64,000 nucleotides of DNA. Origin: a bacterium. GTDB lineage: Bacteria > Patescibacteriota > Andersenbacteria > UBA10190 > CAIZMI01. Of the stretch, positions 12,301 to 35,617 are shown piece by piece (positions within the stretch are counted from its first letter, which is position 1; each line of letters opens with the position of its first letter). Under the pieces are notes generated by a model. It had not been told where the DNA came from. It did not search any database and worked only from the letters and a program-made list of their open reading frames with translations. Location of the stretch: NCBI GenBank assembly GCA_030647555.1, contig JAUSJG010000027.1, positions 15,532 to 79,531 on the forward strand. The letters are read 5' to 3'. The position numbers and the translations under genes were made by a program.

Positions 12301-12434
12301 ACTATCAAAATAAACAAACAATAAAGTTGCCAAACCTAAAACCCAACACGAAGTATTATTTCGAGATTATTGTTACCGATCTGCAAAAAGAACAAGCGTA
12401 CGACGCGTATTATAGTTTTGTGACGAAAGAGTAG
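6312..12434 (+). CDS. Giant (2040-aa) secreted/anchored surface protein: signal anchor, Pro/Thr linker, two tandem DUF2341-like + LamG/ConA-like modules, beta-helix-like Thr/Gly-rich region, Ig-like and two FN3-like domains, duplicated C-terminal helical region, terminal FN3-like domain
   Basis: N-terminal hydrophobic segment, then TPTPTSDPTPTP linker. Two copies of W..RKKITI...FP.L....G..DIRFT module. Each copy followed by LLDDVRISN..RSAEWI / LLDDTRVSSTARSAGWI (LamG signature). Two FN3-like repeats (W.WTDNS..E.GFKLY...Y.R.V.SYN..G.S.YS). Internal duplicate QGRxNRLALAxxGT. Domain names assigned by motif recognition only. Confidence 0.75.
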   Translation: MLRTFKSVFPGILTVVLFMGWFSLATPKLFAEEGVASSQETSTTPEVDPLATSGVVLGEATPASTPTPTSDPTPTPNSTPLPTPDPTPAVTPPITPVPNPSPTATPEGTDPENEKPNITKTEEDTDTGKLVTLSAPDETVNNQNVVTGTEIPEIYKVGQEGRIQIKWKNNNDQAMQFKAEDKNNNGKLDYVEWTVPHLSTQVFEIIYISKAFQLDENKEIISDIYDKVKTQDNNWATVKDGQSVRVTFQQVLDNTKDITIHARPKQNPLLSLFQAKPKIEVYPVYSTTPETSGVQASEPIATFQSIDKENTYQILLKDLKTPTDQFDLRVINGDIDFDYIVDPVGWLTNWTHRKKITIANTNVDADLTDFPALVSITADADLATALATGYDIRFTDSGGSTLLSYERESWSGGAGASATGIFWVKVPTIDDTVDTDIYVYYGKSDAVDGQSAVNVWDSNYKGVWHMDDGADTSHINDSTSNGKTGTKEGAATPSQTTGLIGKAQSFAAQQISTSNIGVSTVAGDKTTVDFWMKWDGTDEVMPFGFAAYDLYMHLSGIGFNSAQGDVYGIPTTGFSGNWKHITAVFFNGAYTGNTKIYVNGVSQTLTQLFGGAGSATVSVNPMISGWGYNSGYKFSGLLDDVRISNLERSAEWIKFEYYNQSSANAELTFASQENNVSWLAGWSNRKKITIDHTKVGGGTETQTNFPVLISLTGLSGINANGTDIRFTADDGGTYLAREIESYSAGALTAWVKIPTLSHTADTVIYMYYGNSSATEPAANSTYGSQNVWDSSFKGVWHLKEATGVNNADSTSNANTGTPTNGPVQATGKVDGSLSFDGGDDYVNVGTIINVGNTFSVDAWFNANEVKTAGLVSVIDSGGDGHYGIWTRNDGTVELILDWSTGWTSVSTTYSTNNWIHIIGTFDGTTLRLYKNGILAISNTPSGTPINASNNLVIGAITAASFPFNGLLDDTRVSSTARSAGWIATEYANQNSPGTFYATDDTGGTSNNIVWTDGSGDNLWSTAGNWQGGVVPTASDTAVFNSSATGNVTIDTNASVKGINIASGYTGTITQSASYTVTIGTSGFTQADGVFSAGAGAFTVSGNWAHSAGTFTANSGTVTLNGTAQTISGSTTFYNLTKSVASADTLTFTAGTTQTITNTLTLNGASGQLLSLRSSSTPTQWSIDPQGTKSFSYLDIQDSNNINAVKANAGSTSISSGNNTNWFFDDTLPTIQSVSSDKANNTYTTGTVIDIDLTFSEPVTLTGTGTITLETGTTDQTCDFQVTDSATTTCNYTVQTGDTSSDLTVKTVEGTIKDSAENQMTNFVPASNLAVNKQIVIDTFPTAPSNLTATVLSSSSIKWDWTDNSSNEAGFKLYSSTGTLLATVSTGVTTYTETTLTENTTYNRKVVSYNNAGNSAYSSTVSALTKLNAPSLLSGLAISSTSITWSWTDNSGDETGFKLYDENNDLVATISTVNRTYYTETSLTKGTSYTRKVASYNDDGTSSYSNTVTVQTLALAPASPKLFTPVPGAELDTLTPTFSFGRVSTLDGIKSYTLLIYTEGSTTKSYTITDLPDGSVVNNSDYTAEGNQDSITITLKTEAGLVKGPHTWKVRATDNNNATGDSDFASFTIVLTETTAVISQPTPTATSSPAPLEELAVKPLTPAEVTKQYQAGKTPSRTSPSLWLDNLEKQAQIRADKQTENMDQLLSKFIPFEKIQAFNNRLQAFMQSLQQKLASFFNTMKNQIIAFFTNTTPSSVQRFFAFLSSFFQNTSNWWAELMQQGRANRLALAEQGTNIFVVSFNPVNKVVSSMQAGVFNIIEKFQGINTPKDAILADITANQTALKQSTNRLVEGTVDFFGRQFNATKKIAISLFAGAHTTFRYKVLAGTGVIIRNTGTWLHNLMSQGRENRLALAGSGTKVVNTIIDPVQRVRKAAWLGSIQALEVLEGKDQLKLAIADVHLSEILNNEATLNWSTNRVTYAKVNYGESLMYGEEVFINDYQNKQTIKLPNLKPNTKYYFEIIVTDLQKEQAYDAYYSFVTKE

Positions 12435-12742: not shown

Positions 12743-13960
12743 ATGTCCCTATTTTCCAGAAAAGAATCTTATATCGGTTTAGATATTGGTACGTCTTCAA
12801 TAAAGATTGTTGAATTGAAGCGAGAGGGGAAGGATCAAATAAGATTAGTTACCTATGCGTCCGCGAAGAGCGCGGAGTCTTTGGCGAGTGATCAAAACAA
12901 TTCAGCCGTCGCGCATGTTGCGACAATCGCGCACGAGATATTACGGCGCGCGGGGGTGACTTCTTCGGAAGTGGTAGCCGCGCTTCCCAGTTTGTCTGTT
13001 TTTTCTGCTGTACTTTCTCTCCCTGATATGAGTGAACGTGATTTGGAAAAGGCGGTTGTTTTGGCGGCCAAAAATTATGTACCATCGCCATTAAAGGATG
13101 TTGTTTTGGGTTGGACGGTGATGAAGGAGGGTATTTCGTCAAAACCGGCATTGCCTGTGGATAAATCCAATAATCAGATGCAGTCGGTTGTAGGTGCCGT
13201 GGGAAAATTTGTTGATTTGAAAAAAAATGAAAATTCGGGCCAAGAGAAGCAAATTGTTCCGGTTGTTCCCGAAGATAGCGCCGAATTGAAAGTGCGTCGC
13301 CCTCTTGCGAAGAAAAACTCGGAAATATTTTTGACGGCTGCTCCCAAGGAATTGGTGCAACGCTATTCGGCGGTGATTGATCGATTGAATTTGAGCTTGG
13401 TTGCGTTGGAAGTCGAATCTTTTCCACTTTCACGTTCTCTTTTGGGGAACGCGAAGGAACCGGCGTTATTGGTGGATATTGGCGATTTGGCGACAAATTT
13501 TTCGATTGTGGATAACGGTTATTTGCGCATCAACCAGAGTGTCGATATTGGCGGAGCCGTATTAACCAAGGCTGTTGTCTCAAAATTTGGTGTTTCGTTG
13601 GAAGTGGCGGAAGCGCGCAAGTTTTCCTTTGGTTTAACTTCGGAAAAAGATAATGAAAGTACGGCAATGGCTTTAAAACCGGTAGTAAAAGATATTATTG
13701 ATCGAAGTATTAATCTAAAACGTATTTTTGAAAGAAAAAGCAATAAGGTTGTTGGTCGCGTGGTATTGATTGGCGGGGGGGCGAACCTAAAAGGTCTTGC
13801 GCAATTTTGGCAAGAAACATCGGGGATGTTTACCGAGGTGGGAAATCCATGGAAAGGCGTGCGGGTTCCGCTCACTTTAACTAATAAGTTAATTGCAAAC
13901 GGGCCTTCTTTCGCGGTGGCGGTTGGTTTGGCATTGCGCGAATTGGAACTTGGGGACTGA
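12743..13960 (+). CDS. pilM: Type IV pilus assembly protein PilM (actin-like ATPase fold)
   Basis: 405 aa. N-terminal YIGLDIGTSSIKIVEL actin-fold phosphate-1 motif. C-terminal VVLIGGGANLKGL. Sits at the head of the pilN/O/B cluster. Confidence 0.85.
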   Translation: MSLFSRKESYIGLDIGTSSIKIVELKREGKDQIRLVTYASAKSAESLASDQNNSAVAHVATIAHEILRRAGVTSSEVVAALPSLSVFSAVLSLPDMSERDLEKAVVLAAKNYVPSPLKDVVLGWTVMKEGISSKPALPVDKSNNQMQSVVGAVGKFVDLKKNENSGQEKQIVPVVPEDSAELKVRRPLAKKNSEIFLTAAPKELVQRYSAVIDRLNLSLVALEVESFPLSRSLLGNAKEPALLVDIGDLATNFSIVDNGYLRINQSVDIGGAVLTKAVVSKFGVSLEVAEARKFSFGLTSEKDNESTAMALKPVVKDIIDRSINLKRIFERKSNKVVGRVVLIGGGANLKGLAQFWQETSGMFTEVGNPWKGVRVPLTLTNKLIANGPSFAVAVGLALRELELGD

Positions 13961-14192: not shown

Positions 14193-14843
14193 ATGCCGAA
14201 AATAAATCTAGCTCAAGAAACAATGCGAAACCAAGCCATTGCGCGACGACGCAAGGTTGTGTATTTATTTTCGATTGTCGTCTTGGTGATTGTTGGTGCG
14301 TTTTATTTTGGCGTTTTGTTGCTAACAAAAAATTCTGAGGGAAAAGTGGCCGAAGTTGATAAACGTATCAAGGGTTTGGAACAACAAATTAAATCGCGCG
14401 AAGTCTCGGCAAAACAGATCAAGGCGTTTAGTATGCGTTTAGTTAATGTGGAGAGTCTTCTGAAAAACCATACGCGCTGGTCAACGACTTTGAGTGAGCT
14501 GGAGCGCCTAGTTTTGCCATCTGTTAGCATCCTTGGATTAAATGGCGGTGCGGATACCAAAGAGATCACGATGGATGTTTCGGCGCCAACAATCGAAACC
14601 GCGGCCGATCTTGTCGTGTCGCTAGAATCGGAGGCAAAAAATAATGAAACATTTTTCAGTAACGTTATTGCGTCATCATTGGGTTCGAGTAGTTCGAGCA
14701 GTTCAACGCCTAACGCAAGTACTGTTTTTGCTACAAAGCTTAAGTTTATAGTTAAACCGGAAGGGTTTCTTGATAAGAACATTTCCGTTTCTTCAGCCGA
14801 GTCTCCGGCTGTGGCGACGCCCGTTAATCCATTAATTCCCTAA
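14193..14843 (+). CDS. pilN: PilN-like type IV pilus inner-membrane assembly protein
   Basis: 216 aa. Single N-terminal TM helix then coiled-coil. Positioned after pilM. Confidence 0.55.
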   Translation: MPKINLAQETMRNQAIARRRKVVYLFSIVVLVIVGAFYFGVLLLTKNSEGKVAEVDKRIKGLEQQIKSREVSAKQIKAFSMRLVNVESLLKNHTRWSTTLSELERLVLPSVSILGLNGGADTKEITMDVSAPTIETAADLVVSLESEAKNNETFFSNVIASSLGSSSSSSSTPNASTVFATKLKFIVKPEGFLDKNISVSSAESPAVATPVNPLIP

Positions 14844-14847
14844 TCTT

Positions 14848-15495
14848 ATGGCACGCGCAACAACTGGTCTTTCTTACCTAACATTTGGTGTTGTAGTTTT
14901 GGGCTCATTAGTCTTTGGTGTTTTCGTCTTAATTCCGCAATTTGGACAATACAATTCGGCAAACGCGCAATTGGCACAGGCGTTAACGCAAGAACAAAAT
15001 AACCAAGCCTTCTTGGATAATTTGGATCTGCGAACTGAAGAGTTGAAAAAATATAGTGCTGATGCGAAAGCGCTTAGTGTGGTTTTGCCGGATAGATTTA
15101 TGCAGAGCAGTTTTTGGGTAAATATTAATGATTTGGCCATAAAGGCGGGAGTAGTGGTAAACACGATAAGTGATTCAAAAAAAGAAGCTGTTCCGCAAAG
15201 TAATACAAATCAACCAGTGGTGACCGCAAAATCCGTGTTGGCGAGTGACGGCACTCCGGTTGTTCAGGAAAATATTGTTTCGTCTCCAACCTCGAGATTG
15301 GAAAAATGGGTGACGTCTATTCAGGTTAAAGGTAACTATTCGCAGATTAGGGCGTTTATCAAGAATTTAGAGAGTTCTCTTATTCTTTCGGATTTGAAGG
15401 AGCTTAAGTTGTCTCCGGGAGCGTCTTCCGATAAAAGTACCGTAGTGGATATGCTTTCGGCCGACATGACGATTCGAACATATGTTCAACCTTAG
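14848..15495 (+). CDS. pilO: PilO-like type IV pilus assembly protein
   Basis: 215 aa. N-terminal TM then coiled-coil (AQLAQALTQEQNNQAFLDNLDLRTEELKK). Gene order pilMNO. Confidence 0.5.
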   Translation: MARATTGLSYLTFGVVVLGSLVFGVFVLIPQFGQYNSANAQLAQALTQEQNNQAFLDNLDLRTEELKKYSADAKALSVVLPDRFMQSSFWVNINDLAIKAGVVVNTISDSKKEAVPQSNTNQPVVTAKSVLASDGTPVVQENIVSSPTSRLEKWVTSIQVKGNYSQIRAFIKNLESSLILSDLKELKLSPGASSDKSTVVDMLSADMTIRTYVQP

Positions 15496-15853: not shown

Positions 15854-17626
15854 TTGAGTAATTTGCGATTTTTAAAAAATATGGCTCAATATAATCAAGG
15901 TTCAATCGAAGATGTCTTAGAAGAATGGGGTTTTCTTGCGACTGATCAAAAAGAAACACTTAGGGATACGGCGATTAAAAGTGGTCGCACGATCGATGAG
16001 ATTTTGTTGAGTGAAAGAGTTGTTCCCGAAGAGCAGTTTTATCGTGCCAAAGGAAAAGTACTTGGTATTCCATACATCAATTTGGCAGATTTAGAGATAC
16101 AACCGGACGCCGTTTCAGTTATTGCCGCGGATGTGGCAAAGAATTATAATTTTTTAGCTTTTGCTAAAGACGGGACGACATTGCATGTGGCAATGGCCCA
16201 ACCGGACGACTTTCAGGCGTTGGAAGCATTAAAATTTCTAACAAAAAATACGGGCTTAAAAACGGAAATTCATATCGCTTCGGCCACATCTGTTTTGGAC
16301 GCGCTTTCAAAGATTTCCGGTGGCTTGACCGGGGAAGTGCAGAGCGCGATCAGAGAGTTTAATGAGGAATTGGAAGATGTTCGAAAGGATGTAAGGGGCG
16401 GTGACAGAGATGTGGAAAAAATAGTCGGCGAAGCGCCCGTTACAAAAGCGGTGGCGGTTATTTTACGCCACGGCATTGAAGGAAAGGCGTCGGATGTACA
16501 CATTGAACCAAGCGCGGAAAATTTGCGCGTCAGATTTCGTGTTGATGGGTTGCTATATACGAGCCTTCTTTTGCCGTTAAAACTGCATAATCCGTTAACA
16601 TCGCGTATTAAAATTTTAAGTAATTTAAAAATAGACGAACAGAGATTGCCACAAGACGGTCGGTTTTCCACAAGCGCCGGTGGGCATGAATATGACATCC
16701 GTGTCTCTATTTTGCCAACGGTCTACGGTGAAAAAATTGTTTTACGTATTTTGGACAAATCGCAAGGGGCGGTACCGTTTGAAAAACTTGGTTATACCGG
16801 TGTGCGCTTGGAACACTTCAAAGCATCTTTAGCTAAGCCACACGGATTAATATTGATCACCGGCCCAACCGGTTCTGGAAAATCAACAACGTTATACACA
16901 GCTATTGATAGCATCTGTGATTCAACTCTTAATGTTGTTACTCTCGAAGATCCTGTTGAATATCGTATCGCGGGCACCAATCAGTCACAAATTAATTCGG
17001 ATATTAATTTTTCTTTTGCTAATGGTTTACGAAGTATTTTGCGTCAAGATCCCGATATAATTATGGTTGGAGAAATTCGTGACAAAGAAACGGCCGAATT
17101 GGCGGTACATGCCGCGTTAACCGGTCATTTGGTGTTGTCTACGTTGCATACCAATGACGCAATCGGCGCAATTCCGCGCTTGATCGACATGGGACTTGAA
17201 CCGTTTTTGTTGGCTGCCGTGTTTCGCGTGGTTGGCGCGCAACGTTTGGTTAGACGTCTTTGTGAAGCGTGTAAAAAAGAAGTTCCCATTCCAATGGAAT
17301 TTCGTGATATAATAACCAATGTAATCGCAACTGTTCCTGATTCAGAAAAAACGGAAGCAAATCAGAAAGATCCTAAGGTTCTTTATGAAGCCGAGGGATG
17401 TAAGGATTGTGGTGGCAAGGGCACGAGCGGGCGTATCGCTGTCGTGGAAGTTATCCCAATTACAGAGGATTTAAGGCAGGCGATGATGTTGCGTAAATCG
17501 CAAGCGGATATGTATAAGATTGTTGTAAAGGAAAGAATTCTTTCAATGCGTCAAGACGGTTTTCTTAAAGCGTTACTCGGAGTAGTATCATTAAGAGAGG
17601 TTCTCGAAGTTACGTCAGAGGATTAG
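15854..17626 (+). CDS. pilB: Type IV pilus assembly ATPase PilB (GspE family)
   Basis: 590 aa. N-terminal GSPII_E N-domain. Walker A GPTGSGKSTTLY. Asp box and His box. Tetracysteine CEACKK...CKDCGGKG zinc motif. Confidence 0.9.
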   Translation: MSNLRFLKNMAQYNQGSIEDVLEEWGFLATDQKETLRDTAIKSGRTIDEILLSERVVPEEQFYRAKGKVLGIPYINLADLEIQPDAVSVIAADVAKNYNFLAFAKDGTTLHVAMAQPDDFQALEALKFLTKNTGLKTEIHIASATSVLDALSKISGGLTGEVQSAIREFNEELEDVRKDVRGGDRDVEKIVGEAPVTKAVAVILRHGIEGKASDVHIEPSAENLRVRFRVDGLLYTSLLLPLKLHNPLTSRIKILSNLKIDEQRLPQDGRFSTSAGGHEYDIRVSILPTVYGEKIVLRILDKSQGAVPFEKLGYTGVRLEHFKASLAKPHGLILITGPTGSGKSTTLYTAIDSICDSTLNVVTLEDPVEYRIAGTNQSQINSDINFSFANGLRSILRQDPDIIMVGEIRDKETAELAVHAALTGHLVLSTLHTNDAIGAIPRLIDMGLEPFLLAAVFRVVGAQRLVRRLCEACKKEVPIPMEFRDIITNVIATVPDSEKTEANQKDPKVLYEAEGCKDCGGKGTSGRIAVVEVIPITEDLRQAMMLRKSQADMYKIVVKERILSMRQDGFLKALLGVVSLREVLEVTSED

Positions 17627-17665: not shown

Positions 17666-18055
17666 ATGGATCCAGCCAAAGCAAAAATATTACTAGTTGA
17701 AGATGATACGTTCATTTCGGGCATGTACCAAACAAAACTTTCGATGCTTGGCTATTCAGTGCGGGTTGCTTCTGACGGTGAAGCAGGGTGGGCAGAGTTG
17801 CAAAAAGAGGCACCGAATATTGTTTTGCTGGATATTGTTCTTCCCAAAAAAGATGGCTTTGAGATTCTTAGTGAAATCAGAGCAAGCGCGACTTTAAAGA
17901 ATTTGCCGGTAATTTTATTAACAAACCTTGGTCAAAAACCGGACGTTCAGAAAGGTTTGGAATTAGGCGCCGATGACTATATTATTAAGGCGCATTTCAC
18001 GCCAACTGAAGTTGTGGAAAAGATTGAAAAAATGTTAGCCAAAAAAATAGCCTGA
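17666..18055 (+). CDS. Stand-alone CheY-like response-regulator receiver domain (PilH-like)
   Basis: 129 aa. ILLVEDD ... LLDIVLPKKDG ... K residues of the receiver fold. No output domain. Confidence 0.8.
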   Translation: MDPAKAKILLVEDDTFISGMYQTKLSMLGYSVRVASDGEAGWAELQKEAPNIVLLDIVLPKKDGFEILSEIRASATLKNLPVILLTNLGQKPDVQKGLELGADDYIIKAHFTPTEVVEKIEKMLAKKIA

Positions 18056-18084: not shown

Positions 18085-19182
18085 ATGATCGGACGAACAC
18101 CGGAAAATCTTCTTAAAGACCTTTTCGAGCATGTAATTAGTCGTAATGCGTCTGATTTGCACTTGTCGGTGGGGAGACCGCCCGTAATTCGTATCGATGG
18201 GAAACTTTTTTCGGTTCCGGAGGTTGGTGTGTTAACAAAAATTGATTTAAATGAGGTGTTTAAGGCGATTGGTGGAGAAGAAAGGGCCAAGAAATTTGAT
18301 CAAGGTCAACAAGAGGTGGATTTTGCCTTTGCGCATGAAAGCGGTTTCCGCTTCCGTGTTAATGTCTATTTAACTTCTCAGGCGATAACAATCGCCATGC
18401 GGACAATTCCTCGCGACATTCGTACCTTGGATGAATTAAGTCTTCCGCACGAATTAGAGCAGTTTGCAAAACCGTCGCAAGGTTTTGTTTTAATTACCGG
18501 CCCAACTGGACACGGAAAAACAACTACCATGACGGCGATTGTGAATATAATTAATCGATCGAAAGTTGCTCATGTTATTACTATTGAAGATCCTGTGGAA
18601 TATGTTTACGTGGAAGATAAATGCCTGATTCATCAACGGGAAATTGGTCGTGATACCGAATCATTCTCGCAGGCGCTGAAAATGGCTTTTCGTGAAGACC
18701 CGAATGTCGTAGTGGTTGGTGAAATGCGTGATTTGGATAGCATTGCTACGGCTTTAACTATCGCGGAAACCGGTCACATGGTGTTTGCCACTTTGCACAC
18801 CAACAATTCCGCGCAAACCATCGACCGTATCGTTGATGTTTTTCCTGTCGGGCAACAGGCCCAAATTAGAACGCAGTTGGCGGGAACATTAACAGGGATT
18901 GTTTCACAGCGGTTAGTGCCGGCCAAGAACGGTGGTCGCTTACCGGCAGTTGAATTGCTTTTGGCCACACCAGCCGTTCGAAACTTAATTCGTGAGGGTG
19001 AAACGGCGCAAATTCCAGGGGTAATTCAAACTAGCGCCTCCCAAGGGATGATTCCTTTGGAAAGATCACTTAAATCGTTGGTTGATCAGAACCTTGTAAC
19101 AGTAGAGGAAGCAATGGTTTTTGCTTCCGACCCGTCGCTTCTTGGGTATAGCGATTTTGCGATGGGCAGTTCTATGGTATAA
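18085..19182 (+). CDS. pilT: Twitching-motility/retraction ATPase PilT
   Basis: 365 aa. Walker A GPTGHGKTTT. PilT-type His box. No N-terminal GSPII_E_N extension. Confidence 0.9.
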   Translation: MIGRTPENLLKDLFEHVISRNASDLHLSVGRPPVIRIDGKLFSVPEVGVLTKIDLNEVFKAIGGEERAKKFDQGQQEVDFAFAHESGFRFRVNVYLTSQAITIAMRTIPRDIRTLDELSLPHELEQFAKPSQGFVLITGPTGHGKTTTMTAIVNIINRSKVAHVITIEDPVEYVYVEDKCLIHQREIGRDTESFSQALKMAFREDPNVVVVGEMRDLDSIATALTIAETGHMVFATLHTNNSAQTIDRIVDVFPVGQQAQIRTQLAGTLTGIVSQRLVPAKNGGRLPAVELLLATPAVRNLIREGETAQIPGVIQTSASQGMIPLERSLKSLVDQNLVTVEEAMVFASDPSLLGYSDFAMGSSMV

Positions 19183-19205: not shown

Positions 19206-20414
19206 ATGGCGGACTATCAATATCGCGTACGTAATCGGCAGGGAAACATTTCACGGGGTGTTATTAAAGCATCATCGGAAGAAGAGGCTGTTGAGATGTT
19301 GGGACAACACGGGCTCGTGCCGATTGAAATCCGTGATTCTAAAGATACATCTTTTTTCAGCAAAGAATTAACACTCAAAAACGTATCGGTGCGCGATCGC
19401 GCGATATTCTCGCGTCAATTGGCGACGATGATTTCTTCCGGTATTCCTATTTTACAGGCCCTGCGTATTCTGGTTTCTCAAACGGAAAATTCCAAGCTCG
19501 CCGATATTTTGAGAGAAGCTACATACGATATTGAAGGCGGGGAATCGTTGAGCAATGCGTTAGAAAAATATCCGCACCAATTTTCTGAATTCTTTATTAG
19601 TATGGTACGCAGTGGCGAGCAAAGTGGACGCGTGGCGGAGGCGTTGGAACGATTGGCAGACAACGAGGAAAGGAACTATTCCCTTATTAGCAAAGTGAGA
19701 GGCGCTCTGATTTATCCCGCCTTCGTTATTTCCGCCATGCTGGTAATGGGTCTATTGATGGTGGTGTTTGTTATTCCGCAATTAACGGGGCTGTTTGATC
19801 AGTCGGATGTTGAATTGCCGTTTATCACAAAAGTATTGATGGGAAGTTCCACGGTCATTGGGACTTATTGGTGGTTTATTCTGCTTTTTATAATCGTTGC
19901 AGGTGTTTTAATTTCGTTCTATGTGCGTACAACGGAGGGTAGGTATAATATGCACGCGATAATGTTGCGATTGCCAATTGCCGGTCGGTTACTTCAGAAA
20001 ATGTACCTCGCGCAGTTTACCGGAGCGATGGAAGTGCTGGTGAAAAGTGAAATTCCCGTGGTGCAGGCCTTGATGGTGGCGCGTGATATCATGGGTAATA
20101 AAATTTATCGTCAAATCATTGACGAAACGGCCGAAGAGGTTAAAAACGGTTCAACCATTTCTTCTGCTTTTGAAAAATATCCGGAAATTCCAATGATGGT
20201 TTCGCAGATGATCAGTGTTGGTGAGCGTAGCGGTGAATTGGGCAAGTCTTTAAGTTCCGTGAATCGTTTTTATCAAAGAGAAGTGAACGATGCTGTGCAA
20301 AACATAACGCAATTAATTGAACCGGTTGTTATCGTAGTTCTTGGTGTTGGTGTGGCCGTAATGATTATGGCGGTGTTGATGCCAATTTATCAGTTGGTAA
20401 ATGTGATACAATGA
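19206..20414 (+). CDS. pilC: Type IV pilus platform protein PilC (two T2SS-F domains)
   Basis: 402 aa. Duplicated T2SSF-type helical domains, three TM segments. Confidence 0.85.
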   Translation: MADYQYRVRNRQGNISRGVIKASSEEEAVEMLGQHGLVPIEIRDSKDTSFFSKELTLKNVSVRDRAIFSRQLATMISSGIPILQALRILVSQTENSKLADILREATYDIEGGESLSNALEKYPHQFSEFFISMVRSGEQSGRVAEALERLADNEERNYSLISKVRGALIYPAFVISAMLVMGLLMVVFVIPQLTGLFDQSDVELPFITKVLMGSSTVIGTYWWFILLFIIVAGVLISFYVRTTEGRYNMHAIMLRLPIAGRLLQKMYLAQFTGAMEVLVKSEIPVVQALMVARDIMGNKIYRQIIDETAEEVKNGSTISSAFEKYPEIPMMVSQMISVGERSGELGKSLSSVNRFYQREVNDAVQNITQLIEPVVIVVLGVGVAVMIMAVLMPIYQLVNVIQ

Positions 20415-20507
20415 GGGTAGCTTTTAGGTTAATTTTGAACTTAGAAGCAAGATGGGCCTTGAAGAATAACTGGTTTATTTACGCCCAAAATTACCAATGT
20501 CCAATTA

Positions 20508-20541
20508 CCAATTTCCAATGAAATTTCAAATTCCAAAAACG
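20508..20541. promoter_or_regulatory. CCAATTTCCAA...CCAATGAAAT motif upstream of the pilin gene (also at 48612-48637 and 59351-59394)
   Basis: Three copies, each in the 5' region of a plus-strand gene. Confidence 0.35.
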
Positions 20542-20645
20542 TCGTCTTTGCGCCTGCCGGCCGTAGCTTTAGCGAAGGCTGGAGCCAATCTCCTGAACTT
20601 TCGTATTGAAAACATTACTATTTTATCGAGAGGAGGTGATCGCGT

Positions 20646-21056
20646 GTGAAAAAGTTAAATAACAAAGGTTTTACCCTCATCGAATTGTTGGTTGTTATTG
20701 CGATCATCGGATTGCTAGCATCAATGGTTTTGGTGGCGGTATCAACAGCAAGAGCAAAGGCGAAGGATGCCCGCGTTAAAGCTGATGTTCAACAAATTAG
20801 GGTTCTTGCGGAAGCTTCGGCGAGTGATTCTGGTTCTTACTCAGACACGACTAGTTGGCCTACAGCAGCACAAACATCTTACGGAACACTTTCTGGTGAT
20901 ATTGGATCTCAAGGAGGTACGGTTACAAAAAATGTTAATGGAACAACCTCGTTCTGTATTAGTTCAACTTTGCCATCTGATAGTACTAAGAGTTTTTGTT
21001 TGGCGACTACAGGCAAAACTGGTACCGTTGCGTGTGGAACAGGAGATTGTCCGTAA
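20646..21056 (+). CDS. pilA: Type IV (major) pilin, class-III signal peptide (GTG start)
   Basis: 136 aa. KG|FTLIELLVVIAIIGLLA prepilin cleavage/N-methylation motif. AGGAGG Shine-Dalgarno 8 nt upstream. Confidence 0.85.
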   Translation: MKKLNNKGFTLIELLVVIAIIGLLASMVLVAVSTARAKAKDARVKADVQQIRVLAEASASDSGSYSDTTSWPTAAQTSYGTLSGDIGSQGGTVTKNVNGTTSFCISSTLPSDSTKSFCLATTGKTGTVACGTGDCP

Positions 21057-21060
21057 AGAT

Positions 21061-21145
21061 ACAAATGGAAAAAAACAACGCGGAAAATCCCGCGTTGTTT
21101 TGTATTGTAGTTTTCCCCGACTTCGTGCCTACTCTCTGTTTAGTT
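21061..21145. repeat. 85-bp module containing a bidirectional rho-independent terminator (copy 1, terminates pilin gene)
   Basis: aaaaaaacaacgcggaaaatcccgcgttgtttt hairpin with flanking A-run and T-run. Identical 85-mer at 21432-21516. Confidence 0.65.
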
Positions 21146-21431
21146 CCCGACTTCGGAGGTGTTTGACATAACAATAAAATATGATTTATTAATCAGCTTG
21201 CATTGGCCAATTATGTGATTTTCAACATATGAAAAAACGCACTAACGCGACGTTTTTTTCACTTTTTTGTCTTTGACAAATTCTAAAATATTTAACTTAA
21301 TAATTAGCTTATACTAGCTAATTATTTTTGATTTACACCAGTAAAAAACTTTTTTCAAAGGATTGCAAAAAATTGTTTTATTTTCGTACATGAGTGTTTA
21401 TAAAGAAACGCACTAAACCTCCGAACTCAGG

Positions 21432-21516
21432 ACAAATGGAAAAAAACAACGCGGAAAATCCCGCGTTGTTTTGTATTGTAGTTTTCCCCGACTTCGTGCC
21501 TACTCTCTGTTTAGTT
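21432..21516. repeat. Second identical copy of the 85-bp terminator module, abutting the stop codon of the minus-strand GT-C gene
   Basis: Exact 85/85 identity with 21061-21145. Confidence 0.65.
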
Positions 21517-22739
21517 TATAGGTGGGTTTGTGTTGATTTTTTTTCTAGTGATGCCGTAACAAATATTAAGACGATAATGTAAAAGATAATTATTCGGGAG
21601 AACCATAGCGCAAGGTTGCTAAACGATGGGACAAACAGCGCAAGTAATTGTAATGGCAGGATTGTAAATAACGCGAGATAAAAAATTTGTCGGGCATATA
21701 AATTAAATTTGATAAACAATTTTTCATACAAAATATCCATCGTAAACAGCGAAAGAAAGATGTGCAGAATAAAAATTATTTGATAAAAGAACCGTAAATT
21801 ATTCATTGATGATTTTAAGAGCAAGACCGTTGTTACACTTATGGTTAAAAATAAGGCCATTAGAAACAGTCTTGGAATTGTTAATTTATGCTTTAAGGTA
21901 ATGAGGAAAGAAAGAGAAATAAACGCGATAAAGGTAAGCGGTGCGTCTAAAATGAAACTGCTAAAAGTCACTTCTCGAAAATAGTAGGCGGGTATAATGT
22001 TTGTAGCGATATCGGTATCGATTAAGCTTGTAGTTCCCAAAAGTGATGAGCTCAAGAACGAAAAAGGGGAGTGCCAAAGATAGGGATCGGTTAGAAAAAA
22101 TACAGCAATAGCAATTATTGCTAGAATAATCATGTTTTTGAATGAGTGATAATACCAGATCAGAACGGGTATAAATACGGCCAGCATTAGGGTCATATGG
22201 ATTCTCGAAGCAAGTGCTAGCCCAATGCAAACACCAATGAATAAGGTGTCTAATGGGAGTGTTTTTCTTTCTTTAACGTGATAAAGCGTGATAATCCAGG
22301 CTAATCCAAGCAATTTAGCGGTGATTATATCGGAAGGGTTGGTGAAAAGCGCATAGTCGCTACCCAGTAAAATTGCAATCCAAACAAGCCACCAGAGATT
22401 GTTTCTGTATATTTTAAAAACATAGAAAAGGATAAAAAACGTCGCAAAAGAGTCTATAATTACACACGCTAAGCGAATACTGCGCAGTGGTGAAAACAGA
22501 TTTGAAGGAAAAAGATTTGATACCAACAAAGGAAATGTTCCCGGGTGCGTGGAATGGATACTCGGATTAAAGTCGAAACTATGCGTCCGCAGGTCGTTTA
22601 CTAGTTGGATTTTCTTTCCAACCCAGTAGCCCCCGTCAGCAATACCTGCGGTATTCCAAAGAAAAAGAGAAATTAAAAATATAGCCAGAAAGATGATGGG
22701 AAAGCAACGAATGGGGTTTATTTGGCTAATTTTGTACAT
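21516..22739 (-). CDS. Polytopic membrane protein, GT-C-fold glycosyltransferase-like (ArnT/PMT/O-antigen-ligase-like); candidate pilin glycosyltransferase
   Basis: 407 aa, at least 10 predicted TM helices. Periplasmic loops with Asp-rich motif near the N-terminus. Function inferred from topology and location between the two pilin genes. Confidence 0.45.
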   Translation of the reverse strand: MYKISQINPIRCFPIIFLAIFLISLFLWNTAGIADGGYWVGKKIQLVNDLRTHSFDFNPSIHSTHPGTFPLLVSNLFPSNLFSPLRSIRLACVIIDSFATFFILFYVFKIYRNNLWWLVWIAILLGSDYALFTNPSDIITAKLLGLAWIITLYHVKERKTLPLDTLFIGVCIGLALASRIHMTLMLAVFIPVLIWYYHSFKNMIILAIIAIAVFFLTDPYLWHSPFSFLSSSLLGTTSLIDTDIATNIIPAYYFREVTFSSFILDAPLTFIAFISLSFLITLKHKLTIPRLFLMALFLTISVTTVLLLKSSMNNLRFFYQIIFILHIFLSLFTMDILYEKLFIKFNLYARQIFYLALFTILPLQLLALFVPSFSNLALWFSRIIIFYIIVLIFVTASLEKKSTQTHL

Positions 22740-22886
22740 TAGGGCTTATTTTGTGGATTTATTATTTTATTTAGCTAGTAAAGTGTAAGGTACAGATTTT
22801 GGTTATGAACCGCAACTATAGGTTGTATTGTGTGCTATAATTAAAAAAGTGATTAATGGGGGGATAATTCTTATTAGCGAATCTAA

Positions 22887-23324
22887 ATGAAAATAAATAC
22901 ACAGAAAAACAAAAAAGGGTTTACGATGATAGAGTTGTTGGTTGTAATATCGGTGATTGCTTTACTTGTCGCCCTCGTGCTTGTTGCAGTCTCAATGGCT
23001 AGGGTGAAGGCAAATAATTCTCGGATTAAGGGCGATATGGACCAGTTGCGGAAGCAAGCAGAAGTGATATACGTAGCAAATGGAATGACAACATATTGTA
23101 AGGGCGTAGTTGCGGGGGATTGTTTTAGTAATGGTCAGAACCCTCAGGTAATTTTGCTTCGTGATGATATTGTGAAAAGAAGTTATGCTGCAGCTTATCC
23201 AAATCTGATCGCAAATGATATTGGATATTGCATTTCATCAAAAATGGCAAATAATAATAGGCTTTGTTATGATTCTTCGGGCAAACAAACGACGGGTATG
23301 TGTTCGGGCATCGTGTGCCAATAA
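22887..23324 (+). CDS. Second type IV pilin (class-III signal peptide)
   Basis: 145 aa. KKG|FTMIELLVVISVIALLVALV. C-terminal cysteines (CYDSSGKQTTGMCSGIVC) suggest a disulfide-bonded loop. Confidence 0.85.
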   Translation: MKINTQKNKKGFTMIELLVVISVIALLVALVLVAVSMARVKANNSRIKGDMDQLRKQAEVIYVANGMTTYCKGVVAGDCFSNGQNPQVILLRDDIVKRSYAAAYPNLIANDIGYCISSKMANNNRLCYDSSGKQTTGMCSGIVCQ

Positions 23325-24079
23325 TGTTGGTAGTAATTGTTGGGGTTGCCCTTATCATTGGTAGTTTTTTGACGGTCGCTTCGGAAGACCCGGATGGGTT
23401 TGATTGGTTGACGCGAAAACGGTCGAAATGCATGGAATGTGGGCATGTTTTGGATTTTTATGATCTTTTTCCGGTTTTTAGTTACTTGTGGTTGAAGGGA
23501 AAATGTCGCTATTGTGGAAAACTTATTGCTCCATATCATTTGATCACCGAATTAACGACTGTTTTCGTTTTTGTATTAGCTTATTTAGTTACTCCGAAAC
23601 CGCTACAAATAGGTTTTGTTTTTTTGTTAGTGATGCTGACACTATTATTGGTGCTTACTTTAACAGATCTGAAGTTTTGGACGCTACCGGATATCTTCGT
23701 CGGTCTATTGGCGCTTGTTGGTATTATTCGCGCCATAGTTATACACAGGCCGGATATAAAAGACTGTCTGGCGGGTGCGGTTGTGGGTTTTTTGTTGCTC
23801 GGTGGTATTCACTATTTTTCAAAAGGGAAGGCAATGGGCTTTGGGGACGTAAAACTGGCCGCCGCCATGGGGGTTGTACTGGGACTAGGACAAGTTGTTC
23901 TGGCCTTAATGATTGCTTTTGTCTTGGGAGGCATTGTTGGCGCTGTGCTTATGGCTCTAAAGAAGGCAACCGCAAAAAGCATGGTGCCGTTTGGGCCGTT
24001 TCTCACAATTGCAACGGCACTATTGTTGTTATTTCCACAGTTATATGGACGTATTCTTCTTTTTTACGGTCTGATGTAA
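23300..24079 (+). CDS. pilD: Prepilin peptidase PilD (A24 family); likely true start at the ATG at 23324 overlapping the pilin stop (TAATG)
   Basis: 259 aa. CMECGHVL...CRYCGK tetracysteine zinc motif. Multiple TM helices. Conserved catalytic Asp residues context. Confidence 0.85.
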   Translation: MFGHRVPIMLVVIVGVALIIGSFLTVASEDPDGFDWLTRKRSKCMECGHVLDFYDLFPVFSYLWLKGKCRYCGKLIAPYHLITELTTVFVFVLAYLVTPKPLQIGFVFLLVMLTLLLVLTLTDLKFWTLPDIFVGLLALVGIIRAIVIHRPDIKDCLAGAVVGFLLLGGIHYFSKGKAMGFGDVKLAAAMGVVLGLGQVVLALMIAFVLGGIVGAVLMALKKATAKSMVPFGPFLTIATALLLLFPQLYGRILLFYGLM

Positions 24080-24094: not shown

Positions 24095-24715
24095 ATGTTA
24101 CGGCAAAAACAAACAATAACTAAAAATTCCGGCTTTACGCTGATTGAAGCCATTGTGACGATAATAATAATGTTGTTATTAATGGGTATTCTTTTATCCG
24201 GTTATAGTCAGGCCAAACAGCGTTTCTTGGTACGTGATTCAGCTCAACAGTTTGCCGATGTAATTAGGCAGACAATCGCTGACACAAAAAACGGCATAAG
24301 GGTTGTACCCGTTGCACCCATTACTTGTGTGCCTGACACCTCAAACCCTGCTACCGCAGATTATCGTCAATGTTCTAATTATAAAATAAGAGCCACCTCA
24401 GTGGATGACGCAGGTGTTACATTTAATAAATATGATAAATATGTAATAGGTACGGGAGTAAAGTACGCAAATGATCCAATGAATCATCCGTTGCTGGTTG
24501 GGACGGCTTTTTTGGGGGAATTAAATCTTGATTTTACTTATTCTACCGGGACATTTCCGCTTGTATCTATTGGTATGACGGGTAATGGTGGTAGTGTTAC
24601 GTCGAACGAGACAATTCAGCTGACGATAATAAGCTTGAGCGATGGAAATATAAAAACTAATATTTGTATTATGAAGTCAGGTTCTGTGTTGGTTCAAGCA
24701 GATCCTTGTAACTAG
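24095..24715 (+). CDS. Minor pilin / pseudopilin with prepilin-type N-terminus
   Basis: 206 aa. NSG|FTLIEAIVTIIIMLLL. Confidence 0.75.
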   Translation: MLRQKQTITKNSGFTLIEAIVTIIIMLLLMGILLSGYSQAKQRFLVRDSAQQFADVIRQTIADTKNGIRVVPVAPITCVPDTSNPATADYRQCSNYKIRATSVDDAGVTFNKYDKYVIGTGVKYANDPMNHPLLVGTAFLGELNLDFTYSTGTFPLVSIGMTGNGGSVTSNETIQLTIISLSDGNIKTNICIMKSGSVLVQADPCN

Positions 24716-24723: not shown

Positions 24724-25440
24724 ATGAAAAAATATAAATTTTTAAAATCAAACATAAAACAGAGAGGGTTTTCCTTGGTTGGTGTTTTGGTGGCGGCATT
24801 TATCGCGCTCCTTGTTCTTACGGCGCTTCTTTCAATGCTTTCGCAAATTTTAGCACTGGGAAGGGTTTCTAAAAACAAGTTCGTGGCCGTCAATCTGGCA
24901 AAAGAAGGGATTGAGCTGGTTCGCAATATGCGAGACAGTAACTGGTTGTATTATCCAGTCGTGAGTGGGACATCGGTACAAGCGATGCAATGGCGGGGAT
25001 GTCAAGGTGGTGGTACTGCTACAGATTGCGTGAAATTAAAAAGTTTGTGCAATGGGGGGCCATATACAGTCGATGCTTTGGATGATGACCTTATTTTGAA
25101 AAGTGCCCCCAACCTCACCGATAGAGAGTTGAAACAGGTTACTTATGGAGGGGCAAAAGTGTTTACACATCAAGCAGGTGGCACTACTAACCCCATCTTT
25201 AGTCGGTCAATAACAATTGGTTCGGCGGACATAGAACCCTCTGAATTGTCTGAAGATTATTTACCAGTCTTGCTTGGTTGTGGCGAAACGGCTGATTTCT
25301 CGAGCACTAATTCTTTAAAAATAAAACCAAGAGGTATTGTTGTTACTTCGAGGGTTGAGTGGCTTGAACCGGGGACTGGCACACCTAAGAATGTCGAGTT
25401 GACGGGAATTTTATATGATTGGTTAACACAAAGGCCATGA
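24724..25440 (+). CDS. Minor pilin-like protein (PilV/PilW-like N-terminus)
   Basis: 238 aa. QRG|FSLVGVLVAAFIALLVL. Confidence 0.6.
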   Translation: MKKYKFLKSNIKQRGFSLVGVLVAAFIALLVLTALLSMLSQILALGRVSKNKFVAVNLAKEGIELVRNMRDSNWLYYPVVSGTSVQAMQWRGCQGGGTATDCVKLKSLCNGGPYTVDALDDDLILKSAPNLTDRELKQVTYGGAKVFTHQAGGTTNPIFSRSITIGSADIEPSELSEDYLPVLLGCGETADFSSTNSLKIKPRGIVVTSRVEWLEPGTGTPKNVELTGILYDWLTQRP

Positions 25441-26045
25441 GGTATCAAGAAAAAAATAGCGGTTTTTCGTTGATTGAATTAATGGTGGCCGGTTCAATCT
25501 TTATACTTGTCTTGGGCTTTGTGGGTGGAATATTTTCAATGTTTGTTAGTCGACAGAAGCAACAGGTTGATACACAGTTACTACAGCAGGAAGTGCAGAA
25601 CTTTTTGGAAGTTATCGAACGTGACGTTAGGACAGCGTACGGAGAAAAGTTTAATGATCCGAATGCATCATCAAATCAATCGATTTCATTTATGAATCAA
25701 GAGCAAAAGTTTACGCTCCCTGTTAGTGAGCGAGTTGAACATCAATATTCTTTAAAGACCGATATGGTCGAAAATTGGATAGGGCGAGTATATTATAATG
25801 ACGGCAGTGGATCATTATCTATGCCTATTCCTATTACATCCGATAAAATTAATGTAACAAACCTAGAGTTCAAATGGAATAAAGGGAAGTTCGCGACAGA
25901 CAGTAGTGGTAACCATTATCTAACCGGAGTTCCTTTACGGCTAACTATCGCGCTTGAGGTGTGTAGACGAGATGATCTAACCTCGTGCCTGCAAACTCAG
26001 GCCACGATTGCTTCTCGTCAAACTAAGCCGATAGATGAAAAATAA
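25437..26045 (+). CDS. Minor pilin with prepilin-type N-terminus (start chosen at ATG overlapping upstream stop, ATGA; longest ORF would start 25419)
   Basis: NSG|FSLIELMVAGSIFILVL. Confidence 0.7.
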   Translation: MRYQEKNSGFSLIELMVAGSIFILVLGFVGGIFSMFVSRQKQQVDTQLLQQEVQNFLEVIERDVRTAYGEKFNDPNASSNQSISFMNQEQKFTLPVSERVEHQYSLKTDMVENWIGRVYYNDGSGSLSMPIPITSDKINVTNLEFKWNKGKFATDSSGNHYLTGVPLRLTIALEVCRRDDLTSCLQTQATIASRQTKPIDEK

Positions 26046-26491
26046 TGCTTAAATATATTTTACAAAAAAACAACAATAAGGGGGAAGTGGCGCTAATTTA
26101 TGTTTTCATTATTTTGTCGATACTGATTGTAAGCGCATTTACTCTTTCCGCGATCGCTATAAGTACAATTAAGGGGTCCGGGACCGCCGAATATGTTGCC
26201 CGTGCTCAAGTCGCCTCCGACAGTTATCTTGAAAAAGCGATGTTTCAATTTCATTGGTCAAAACTCACAGACAGTCGATGCTTGAATACGGTAACACCCG
26301 TTGACGGTGATGGCACGAAGGTTACTGTAATGGTGGACAATGGTGAAAAAGGAGTGTGCCCATCGCTTGATGGTGTTGTTACAAAAAAAGATGAAAAGCT
26401 CTGTGTGTATTCATTTGCTGAAAATCACGGCGTTCAGAAAAAGGGATCGGCCGGAGCGGGTGACCCTACAAAGGGTTGCGAAGTGAGATAG
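26045..26491 (+). CDS. Pilus-associated hypothetical protein with N-terminal hydrophobic helix (PilX-like?)
   Basis: 148 aa. TAATG coupling to upstream gene. N-terminal membrane helix. Several cysteines. Confidence 0.4.
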   Translation: MLKYILQKNNNKGEVALIYVFIILSILIVSAFTLSAIAISTIKGSGTAEYVARAQVASDSYLEKAMFQFHWSKLTDSRCLNTVTPVDGDGTKVTVMVDNGEKGVCPSLDGVVTKKDEKLCVYSFAENHGVQKKGSAGAGDPTKGCEVR

Positions 26492-34819: not shown

Positions 34820-34893
34820 CGCGGGGAAGAGCAGCCCGGTCGCTCGCATGGCTCATAACCATGAGGTCGCAGGTTCGAATCCTGCCCCCGCTA
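34820..34893 (+). tRNA. tRNA(CAU), initiator-like (C1/U72 mismatch, A11:U24)
   Basis: Cloverleaf folded by hand: acceptor cgcgggg/ccccgct, D-stem gagc/gctc, anticodon stem catgg/ccatg with loop ctCATaa, T-arm gcagg-ttcgaat-cctgc, discriminator A. No encoded CCA. Confidence 0.7.
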
Positions 34894-34935
34894 CTATTAC
34901 TAAAAAGACCCCTGTGGGGTCTTTTTAGTAATAGA
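34894..34935. terminator. Perfect hairpin after the tRNA (ctattactaaaaagacccc-tgt-ggggtctttttagtaatag)
   Basis: 19-bp stem read directly. Similar aaaatacccctgtggggtatttt hairpin at 35044-35066. Confidence 0.45.
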
Positions 34936-35591: not shown

Positions 35592-35617
35592 CAAATTATT
35601 CGTAGGGTATTTGTACA

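Follow-up and report, generated by a model that had tools for sequence, protein, structure and literature searches.

Within a complete type IV pilus operon, two pilin genes enclose gene X (21516..22739, minus strand), for whose 407-aa polytopic membrane product a GT-C glycosyltransferase fold is predicted with high confidence. The product, X, is probably a sugar-adding enzyme for the pilus. The fuller reading favoured here, which is judged as apt to be right as wrong, is that X would be a glycosyltransferase dependent on a lipid-phosphate sugar, acting on pilin and belonging to a fast-evolving, dispensable cassette.

The operon occupies the plus strand of the window, the whole 64-kb stretch of DNA that was analysed. 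The pilus machinery upstream of gene X comprises PilM (12743-13960; Pfam PilM_2), a PilN-like protein (14193-14843), PilO (14848-15495; Pfam PilO), PilB (15854-17626), a response regulator (17666-18055), PilT (18085-19182) and PilC (19206-20414). Orthologous genes of the related loci L002, L018 and L019 carry T2SSE, Response_reg and T2SSF, and T2SSF is found in PilC homologues. On the other side lie the PilD prepilin peptidase (23300-24079; Peptidase_A24 in the L002, L004, L018 and L019 orthologues) and four minor-pilin-like genes (24095-24715, 24724-25440, 25419-26045 and 26045-26491) with GFTLIE- or GFSLIE-type N-termini. Both genes flanking gene X match the prepilin N-terminal methylation motif, so gene X is sandwiched between pilins in the opposite orientation, as an earlier note on this DNA had described for a 407-aa ORF. 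Pilin 1 (20646..21056, plus strand) encodes 136 aa (PF07963 at 8.5e-10, TIGR02532; leader MKKLNNKG followed by FTLIE), and pilin 2 (22887..23324, plus strand), which is divergent from gene X, encodes 145 aa (PF07963 at 9.7e-7, TIGR02532). The head of pilin 1 contains 4 Cys and is 39% Ser+Thr, compared with 13% in the long ORFs of the window, in agreement with the Ser/Thr richness first noticed, and the strings quoted at that time are present. Pilin 2 has 6 Cys and a head of 14% Ser+Thr. Pilin 1, with orthologues of 54-67% identity in L010, L002 and L004, is probably the major pilin and the most likely candidate acceptor.

On sequence grounds the ATG-started ORF of gene X is a real gene, because a homologue is full length (57-62% identity, E 6e-132) and has the identical start MYKISQINP. 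The GC content drops to 0.34-0.38 around gene X, which had raised the idea of horizontal acquisition. This was rejected given that GC3 of gene X is normal (0.39, within the range of its neighbours); the dip sits in codon position 1 of a gene with a Phe/Ile/Leu/Asn-rich composition, and so stems from the amino acids encoded and does not point to foreign DNA.

Hydropathy, the positive-inside rule and AF2 secondary structure together predict about 12 TM helices in X in an N-in/C-in arrangement, consistent with the earlier count of at least 10. The AF2 model has an overall fold like that of solved GT-C enzymes, and the GT-C fold is a well supported prediction. There is no soluble domain, the longest loops being 56 and 41 residues, and the C-terminus extends 9 residues past the last TM helix. 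TM1-7 are located at residues 9-217 and TM8-12 within residues 259-406, with an outer loop of residues 218-258 between them. The GT-C(A) class is defined by a conserved 7-TM module in which the first luminal loop forms two helices, the first with the catalytic base, and this N-terminal module precedes a variable C-terminal one (PMC13503287). ALG3, with 7 conserved and 5 variable TM helices (PMC13503287), shares the 7+5 layout of X. The first outer loop of X (residues 31-86) is modelled with helices at 36-52 and 68-74, and by this two-helix loop and the 7+5 layout X is predicted to be a compact, all-membrane member of the GT-C(A) class.

Asp35 forms the N-cap directly before helix 36-52, in the context I-A-D35-G-G. 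It is invariant in 55 sequences and conserved in 96% of 132 family members, with D-x-x-x-W as the surrounding family consensus, and its position in the model makes it the candidate catalytic residue. Conservation across the same 132 members is also high for W39 (98%), P66 (98%), R179 (95%) and R316 (86%). The conserved outer-face motifs of X consist of H65-P66-G67, P135, S178-R179, P219..W222..P225 and R316-F-F, their placement on the outer side following from the bias in Lys/Arg, of which 16 fall in the loops and termini predicted to be cytoplasmic, against 3 in short outer loops. The outer-face residues Arg179 and Arg316 could accommodate a phosphate, and the donor would be an isoprenoid-phosphate-linked sugar. 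Three residues of the family consensus, P320, W325 and E326, have been lost from X and are replaced by Q, L and H, respectively.

Clustered at 50%, the family of X comes to at least 143 representatives, with a median length of 366 aa. None of the 143 has a functional name in the sources checked, and the family is considered a previously unannotated GT-C family. X matched 0 families in Pfam and NCBIfam (E up to 1) and gave no match in PHROGs or PDB (phmmer), and the family profile returned only noise from PDB sequences. A word-indexed homologue search with X recovered itself and one relative only, and with the 55-sequence profile it recovered 3 proteins, hydrophobic words swamping the index; a profile-based locus search returned 1 genome locus and 3 metagenome loci, from lineages all already known. 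Neighbour-joining of 132 members places the five pilin-adjacent ones in an exclusive clade. The sister branch (P0006 and P0007) is located on a short contig and at a contig edge, making its neighbourhoods uninformative. Distant members adjoin a GT4-methyltransferase fusion, asparagine synthase or iPGM rather than pilins, and some members are tandem paralogues.

The order PilC-pilin-X-pilin-PilD is kept in the window and in L010/L001, L002/L003 and L004, a positive outcome for the conservation of the arrangement that the earlier note had proposed to look for. L005 differs in context, with X-Maf-pilin-pilin in a different neighbourhood. The identity of X to that of the window is 57-62% in L010/L001, 36% in L002/L003, where the gene is inverted relative to the window and lies on the pilins' own strand, 34% in L004 and 32% in L005. 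Four of the five pilin-linked loci share their synteny by descent, so that only about two independent associations are represented. Compared with L010, PilB, PilT and PilC are 91-95% identical (88-95% with PilD and LigA included), whereas pilin 1, X and pilin 2 are 54%, 56% and 57% identical; compared with L002, PilC is 83% and X 37% identical. X evolves as fast as the pilins, and its divergence tracks the pilins and not housekeeping genes.

A presence/absence polymorphism of X is seen in L018 and L019 (PilC 80% and 75% identical), which are syntenic and in which, X being absent, pilin 2 comes immediately after pilin 1. The pilins of both loci are diverged from those of the window, so the combination that the earlier note regarded as damaging, X missing beside identical pilins, is not what these loci present. 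Ser/Thr richness of pilin 1 as a tracker of X presence was rejected, as the Ser+Thr fractions of the pilin 1 heads overlap between loci with X (0.29-0.39) and without X (0.20 and 0.30) and are not cleanly separated. The L005 pilins are not rich in these residues (0.18 and 0.13), and L004 has an additional pilin immediately next to X, this pilin terminating in a Pro/Thr repeat of approximately 55 residues.

The long ORFs (at least 120 aa) scanned in the window, which were all but a few, yielded neither a GT2 polyprenyl-phosphate sugar synthase nor a GtrA-type flippase. The same scan of the 64 kb contained no DprE1/DprE2, PRPP transferase or GtrA-like protein of the D-Araf pathway and no oligosaccharide assembly genes, and a GtrB-like GT2 synthase and GtrA-like flippase are absent from the pilus loci of relatives. 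Of the pilin glycosyltransferase originally proposed, the GT-C fold has held up, while pilin as the acceptor is suggested by gene linkage, Ser/Thr content being non-discriminating and these scans having yielded no donor genes.

In the mechanism proposed, the active site of X would face the outside of the cytoplasmic membrane, and a polyprenyl-phosphate-linked donor, synthesized by enzymes encoded at another site in the genome, would supply the sugar, with Asp35 as the catalytic base and Arg179 and Arg316 holding the donor phosphate. The sugar would then be passed to Ser/Thr hydroxyls of pilin, likeliest pilin 1, at a stage when the N-terminal helix still holds the pilin in the membrane and before it is polymerised. 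Pilin 1, X and pilin 2 would constitute a fast-evolving, dispensable cassette within the conserved pilus operon, which may introduce variety into the pilus surface, perhaps as a protection from phage or for the recognition of partner cells.

The best reading is that X is analogous to TfpW, the pilin D-arabinofuranosyltransferase of P. aeruginosa group IV, yet is no member of the TfpW, PMT or PglL/TfpO enzymes. TfpW is a GT-C enzyme encoded beside pilA that O-glycosylates pilin Ser/Thr and depends on the DprE1/DprE2 arabinose pathway; its 646 aa include 11 TM helices and a large C-terminal TPR domain in the periplasm, and its first periplasmic loop bears a DDX motif (10.1101/2020.04.19.049825). 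Both TfpW and X are polytopic GT-C-type proteins encoded beside a pilin gene, the pilin allele and accessory gene form a variable cassette in both, and the modification proposed for X is likewise O-linked to Ser/Thr. Judged by the features described for TfpW, X differs in having 407 aa, no TPR or soluble domain, and a single Asp (ADGG) rather than DDX. The PMT family (GT39; Pmt4, Pmt1/2 and bacterial PMT) is characterized by Asp-Glu as its loop-1 motif and by a MIR domain on the luminal side. X has Ala-Asp in loop 1 instead, is without MIR or any other luminal domain and is about half the size, and it gave no PMT or PMT_2 profile match; PMT_2 was matched by only 3 of 55 relatives (best E 3e-7). 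TfpO and PglL, which have a Wzy_C/O-antigen-ligase fold and use a diphosphate-linked oligosaccharide donor, would be functional analogues of X if pilin is the acceptor. The tfpO gene is found immediately downstream of pilA, whereas in Neisseria pglL and pilE are unlinked (10.1101/2020.04.19.049825), contrary to the initial statement that PglL is encoded beside its pilin. The likeness to PglL and TfpO drawn at that time also falls away, these being Wzy_C-type enzymes and X having neither a Wzy_C domain nor a WaaL- or PglL-type structural match.

Known protein-acting GT-C enzymes (PMT, OST and TfpW) usually possess a soluble acceptor-binding domain, and in size X most resembles lipid- and glycan-acting enzymes such as ALG3 and PimE. 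A rather unlikely, though substantial, alternative is that X is a genuine GT-C enzyme with a lipid-linked or cell-envelope glycan, not pilin, as its acceptor, and that it sits in the operon through synteny passed down by descent or by hitch-hiking within a region of variable surface structures. ALG3, PimE, AftA, ArnT, the LTA enzyme YfhO and serotype-converting Gtr enzymes are precedents. Among these, ALG3 (GT58), like ALG9/ALG12 (GT22), is a eukaryotic ER-lumenal Dol-P-Man mannosyltransferase with a lipid-linked oligosaccharide acceptor; X is 7-11% identical in sequence to ALG3, ALG9 and ALG12 and has no Pfam GT22 or GT58 match. Multi-component wall-decorating GT-C systems are common in monoderms (PMC11127046, PMC5836110 and PMC8035078), and Gtr-type systems transfer single sugars from a polyprenyl-phosphate donor onto a surface structure outside the membrane (PMC11127046). 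The Gtr (GtrA/GtrB/serotype-specific Gtr) and CsbB/GtcA/YfhO systems share with X a small, fast-diverging, dispensable and strain-variable GT-C enzyme. However, their acceptor is O-antigen or teichoic acid and a GT2 synthase and flippase are usually adjacent, whereas the neighbours of X are pilins, and other glycan-synthesis genes were not found near the pilus loci. The non-pilus contexts of the bulk of the family, including the GT4-methyltransferase fusion and the tandem paralogues, are consistent with a glycan acceptor, but the exclusive clade formed by the pilin-adjacent members argues against it. Similarly, relatives run the pilus operon without X, yet where X is present its position between the pilins is kept despite the inversion in L002, linkage recurs in the unrelated neighbourhood of L005, and X diverges in step with the pilins.

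Transfer of a polyprenyl-diphosphate oligosaccharide en bloc to pilin, by an oligosaccharyltransferase like TfpO/PglL (O-linked) or PglB/AglB (N-linked), is improbable given the missing ligase domain and the lack of oligosaccharide assembly genes among the scanned ORFs. In PglB/AglB the WWDYG motif is carried by a C-terminal extracytoplasmic domain, and such an OST-type domain is absent from X, which ends 9 residues after its last TM helix. The non-catalytic GT-C-fold protein PIG-U/GAB1 of GPI transamidase and the pilin accessories TfpY/TfpZ offer comparisons for X as a GT-C-fold protein whose transferase activity was lost or never existed, and the loss of P320, W325 and E326 would fit such a role. 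A pilin-specific assembly accessory or membrane chaperone of this kind is nonetheless given very little weight, even with P. aeruginosa pilin alleles reportedly travelling with non-enzymatic accessory genes (PMC11841053).

A more ambitious form of the favoured pilin-modifying reading, held tentatively and at somewhat below an even chance, is that X is a minimal GT-C enzyme with no soluble domain that recognises membrane-embedded prepilin via its TM helix and O-glycosylates it, making with the two pilins a swappable, hypervariable cassette akin to a serotype switch, which would determine the surface chemistry of type IV pili in Patescibacteria. X would then be the first dedicated pilin glycosylation enzyme identified in the superphylum, and its family a new one within GT-C. 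With pilin as its acceptor, X would also show that GT-C enzymes can act on proteins without needing a soluble recognition domain. Cultivated Patescibacteria use type IV pili to attach to their host bacteria. For glycosylation of pilins in the group there have so far been sequence-based predictions only, with no enzyme assigned (PMC11623550), and X is a concrete, testable candidate. A similar picture, in which the machine is conserved and a dispensable, fast-evolving cassette brings together pilin and modifying enzyme, is seen in the pilin groups of P. aeruginosa, where glycosylation reportedly blocks pilus-specific phages (10.1101/150227).

The divergent intergenic region from the start of gene X to that of pilin 2 (22740..22886, 147 bp) contains weak sigma-70-like matches on both strands at chance frequency. 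Rfam at a relaxed threshold gave sub-threshold matches only across 20400-23000, and promoter- and terminator-like counts around gene X were at chance level with the exception of a conserved hairpin. This GC-rich, bidirectional-terminator-like hairpin with a 13-bp stem lies in the convergent intergenic region between pilin 1 and gene X (21061..21516) and is present at 21072-21101 and again at 21443-21472. In the assembled sequence each hairpin lies in one of two identical 85-nt direct repeats (21061-21145 and 21432-21516), between which is a 286-nt AT-rich insert. The hairpin is found as a single copy in the gap between pilin 1 and gene X of L010, L001 and L004, and after pilin 1 in L018.

The ORF at 21516..22739 (−), here called X, is ATG-started, comprises 407 codons and lies between two pilin genes on the + strand, as the earlier note had described. 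In both pilin 1 (20646-21056, +; 136 aa) and pilin 2 (22887-23324, +; 145 aa) a class III signal peptide is present, and PF07963, the prepilin N-terminal methylation motif, is matched at 8.5e-10 and 9.7e-7, respectively, alongside several NCBIfam pilin/pseudopilin models. X is a real gene, since a full-length homologue with 57-62% identity opens with the identical first nine residues. GC content around X falls to 0.34-0.38 from ~0.44; this dip is attributable to the amino-acid composition of X, given a GC1 of 0.37 and a GC3 (0.39) inside the range of its neighbours (0.31-0.50). Hydropathy analysis indicated ~12 hydrophobic segments, consistent with the polytopic membrane protein first proposed, and the distribution of Lys and Arg residues (16 in predicted cytoplasmic loops and termini versus 3 in short outer loops) supports an N-in/C-in topology.

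The product of X is titled 'MAG: hypothetical protein Q7S57_05540 [bacterium]' at NCBI. No family in Pfam or NCBIfam was matched at E up to 1, PHROGs gave no matches, and searches of PDB sequences returned only noise, both as a single query and as a family profile. A word-indexed protein search recovered X itself and one relative only. An exhaustive HMMER search of 1.84 billion representatives returned 143 proteins at E up to 1e-3 (41 below 1e-10), nearly all of 310-436 aa, and no functional name is attached to any of them in the sources consulted. Weak matches to Pfam PMT_2 (best 3e-7) occur in three of 55 aligned family members, and a match to the Alg9-like family Glyco_transf_22 in one.

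AlphaFold prediction of X with two sequences gave a pLDDT of 39.9, and with a 55-sequence alignment a mean pLDDT of 87.2 and a pTM of 0.87. Structure comparison of the model placed PMT and ALG enzymes closest, although X reaches no family profile threshold, with scores for Pmt4 (20.5), ALG12 (19.2), AftA (18.9), ALG9 (18.5), Pmt2 (18.0), ArnT 5f15 (16.9), AglB (16.7), ALG3 (16.0), Pmt1 (15.6), STT3B (14.8), GPI-MT-I (14.6), AftD (14.4), AftB (14.3) and PglB (13.1). Foldseek agreed, its best 12 matches all being GT-C structures (TMq 0.42-0.53), and no WaaL-, PglL- or RodA-type structure scored against the model. In the model, TM1 (residues 9-30) leads into an outer loop (31-86) with helices at 36-52 and 68-74. 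TM2-TM7 then extend to residue 217 and are separated from the last five TM helices, which end at residue 406, by an outer loop of 41 residues (218-258) that contains short helices and has the lowest confidence; a soluble domain is absent. GT-C(A) enzymes consist of a conserved 7-TM module and a variable module, with a first luminal loop of two helices, the first of which bears the catalytic base (PMC13503287). The 7+5 TM layout of X is that described for ALG3 (PMC13503287), and the predicted GT-C(A) fold is well supported.

Asp35, directly before helix 36-52, is invariant in the 55-sequence alignment and conserved in 96% of 132 family members, in which Trp39 (98%) and Arg179 (95%) are also retained. 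The predicted fold thus places an Asp at the canonical catalytic position, together with conserved basic residues on the outer face. Further conserved positions are His65-Pro66-Gly67, Trp116-Trp117, Pro135, Gly173, Ser/Thr178-Arg179, Pro219..Trp222..Pro225 and Arg316-Tyr/Phe317-Phe318. All polar conserved positions fall in predicted outer-face loops, as would be expected of an active site binding a lipid-phosphate sugar at the outer leaflet. At three positions X differs from the consensus of the family, with Gln, Leu and His in place of Pro320, Trp325 and Glu326.

Conservation of the pilin-GT-pilin arrangement in relatives had been proposed as a check, and the order PilC-pilin-X-pilin-PilD was found in three further lineages. 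In L001/L010 X is 57-62% identical, in L002/L003 it is 36% identical and lies on the pilin strand, and in L004 it is 34% identical, is encoded on the opposite strand and adjoins a third pilin. In a different neighbourhood, L005 (32% identity) has the order Band7-X-Maf-pilin-pilin, and a transposase lies nearby on L006. Here (L006 3612-4676 and L005 733-4929) a GT-C gene of the P0005 type, Maf and two pilins sit on short contigs beside an rve-family transposase. A neighbour-joining tree with 132 family members groups the five pilin-linked members in an exclusive clade; the genomic contexts of its sister sequences, P0006 and P0007, are limited by a short contig in one case and a contig edge in the other. 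More distant members (median 366 aa) occur in non-pilus contexts, beside a GT4-methyltransferase fusion, beside asparagine synthase or iPGM (cofactor-independent phosphoglycerate mutase), or as tandem paralogues. One tandem pair from a distant lineage (L015 561-1661 and 1654-2838, overlapping by 8 bp) suggests sequential glycan-building roles in the main family branch. Two distant members (L016 1872-3496 and L017 114-2846) are directly upstream of iPGM; the window's own iPGM gene (33112-34707, −), ~10 kb from X, has no family member beside it.

Across the operon, identity to the window proteins in L010 and L002, respectively, is 91 and 84% for PilB, 95 and 90% for PilT, 92 and 83% for PilC, 88 and 55% for PilD and 89 and 70% for LigA. 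The values are 54 and 64% for pilin 1, 56 and 37% for X, 57 and 42% for pilin 2, and 65-69 and 33-48% for the minor pilins, which places X in the operon's hypervariable portion. Two fully syntenic operons, L018 (PilC 80% identical) and L019 (PilC 75%), lack X, with pilin 2 following pilin 1 after 103 and 83 bp, respectively, and no remnant of X was found by tblastn. X is therefore a dispensable accessory, as far as the operon is concerned, a copy elsewhere in the genome being possible. The earlier note had regarded loss of X beside identical pilins as evidence against its reading; in both operons the pilins have diverged, so this objection does not apply. Synteny covers LemA, the pil genes, LigA and GatCA (X-less regions at L018 8250-9234 and L019 8247-9262). 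L018 belongs to the same metagenome series (Ga02478xx) as L005 and L006, and its X-less operon and their P0005-type GT-C gene could derive from one genome.

The Ser/Thr-rich strings reported earlier are present in pilin 1, whose head is 39% Ser+Thr versus 13% in the long ORFs of the window. Heads of pilin 1 orthologues in loci with X contain 29-39% Ser+Thr and those of pilin 2 10-19%; pilin 1 contains 20 and 30% in the loci without X, and the L005 pilins 18 and 13%. With few loci compared, composition is suggestive at best of a pilin acceptor. The extra pilin paralogue adjoining the GT-C gene of L004 (5419-6000, −) has a C-terminal Pro/Thr repeat of ~55 residues (…PTPTPTETPTESPTPTTSPTPTPTATPTPTPT…), a mucin-like tail with no counterpart in the window's pilins. 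Pro/Thr-repeat tails are of the kind decorated by protein O-glycosyltransferases.

X is a new, compact, unannotated variant among GT-C glycosyltransferases within a hypervariable pilin cassette. Of the earlier reading as a GT-C pilin glycosyltransferase, the first part stands, X being very probably a GT-C glycosyltransferase; that it acts on pilin is plausible but unproven, an evenly balanced proposition drawing on clade-specific linkage to, and co-variation with, pilin genes. In the proposed route, a GT2 synthase would make a polyprenyl-phosphate sugar donor and a small flippase would flip it, both being encoded elsewhere, and X would draw the sugar from this donor, following a three-component logic of GT2 synthase, flippase and GT-C enzyme (PMC11127046). 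Among the ORFs of at least 120 aa in the 64-kb window, nearly all of which were scanned, no glycosylation gene was found, be it for a GT2, a GtrA-like protein or a sugar-nucleotide enzyme. Asp35 would then deprotonate the hydroxyl of a pilin Ser or Thr while the N-terminal helix still anchors that pilin in the membrane, and this anchoring could make a soluble recognition domain unnecessary. Entry of decorated pilin into the pilus would yield a variable pilus surface.

The main competitor, a rather unlikely one, is a GT-C enzyme whose acceptor would be a wall glycan or a lipid-linked one and whose position would reflect descent; a compact architecture like that of ALG3 and PimE would fit such a role, as would the mostly non-pilus settings of the family, but the L005 context, the exclusivity of the pilin-linked clade and an evolutionary rate of X resembling that of the pilins argue against it. 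En-bloc oligosaccharyltransferase activity is improbable, as X lacks a Wzy_C domain and a PglB-type C-terminal domain, and no glycan assembly genes were found among the scanned ORFs of the window. A pilin accessory protein that has the GT-C fold but no catalytic role is marginally less probable still, given retention of Asp35, Arg179 and Arg316.

For a pilin glycosyltransferase, TfpW of P. aeruginosa offers the closest functional precedent, being a GT-C enzyme of 646 aa encoded beside pilA, with a DDX motif, a C-terminal TPR domain and a linked arabinose pathway (10.1101/2020.04.19.049825). X differs in its size and in having neither that motif nor that domain, and no such pathway was found among the scanned ORFs of the window. 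The earlier note had also cited PglL as encoded next to its substrate, but pglL is unlinked to pilE in Neisseria (10.1101/2020.04.19.049825). A TfpO/PglL-type identity for X was rejected. In the literature searched, no dedicated pilin glycosyltransferase was found described for Patescibacteria; in a Saccharibacteria pilus study O-glycosylation sites were predicted only, and its authors call for confirmation (PMC11623550).

Between pilin 1 and X, an exact 85-nt direct repeat (21061-21145 and 21432-21516) brackets a 286-nt AT-rich segment whose edges form a 16-nt imperfect inverted repeat (21145-21160 and 21417-21432), and each 85-nt copy contains a GC-rich terminator-like hairpin. L010, L001 and L004 have one hairpin and a gap of ~55-60 bp at this place, indicating that the window carries a duplication or insertion of ~371 bp; either a MITE-like element or an artefact of assembly could account for it. 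The same hairpin is retained after pilin 1 in L018.

The complete type IV pilus operon runs PilM, a PilN-like gene, PilO, PilB, a response regulator, PilT, PilC, pilin 1, X, pilin 2, prepilin peptidase and four minor-pilin-like genes, followed by LigA, GatC/A and a MurL-type ligase; a secretin gene is absent from its members. The closest named PilC homologues are from the Parcubacteria group and other Patescibacteria. The regulator is a stand-alone receiver gene (17666-18055, +) between pilB and pilT, which keeps its position in L010, L002, L018 and L019 (87-88% identity in the two compared). Elsewhere in the window, Pfam (E up to 1e-5) gave no match for ORFs at 44452-46263 (+; 603 aa) and 60390-61229 (+; 279 aa). 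LAGLIDADG and HTH_23 domains are encoded by a 321-aa ORF (35618-36583) between tRNA-Met (35519-35592) and tRNA-Asp (36574-36649) and near a second tRNA-Met (34820-34894); it may be a homing-endonuclease-like gene within a tRNA cluster. A 2040-aa protein encoded just upstream of pilM (6312-12434, +) combines Laminin_G_3 and DUF2341 with fibronectin type III domains and resembles a giant surface protein adjoining the pilus operon.
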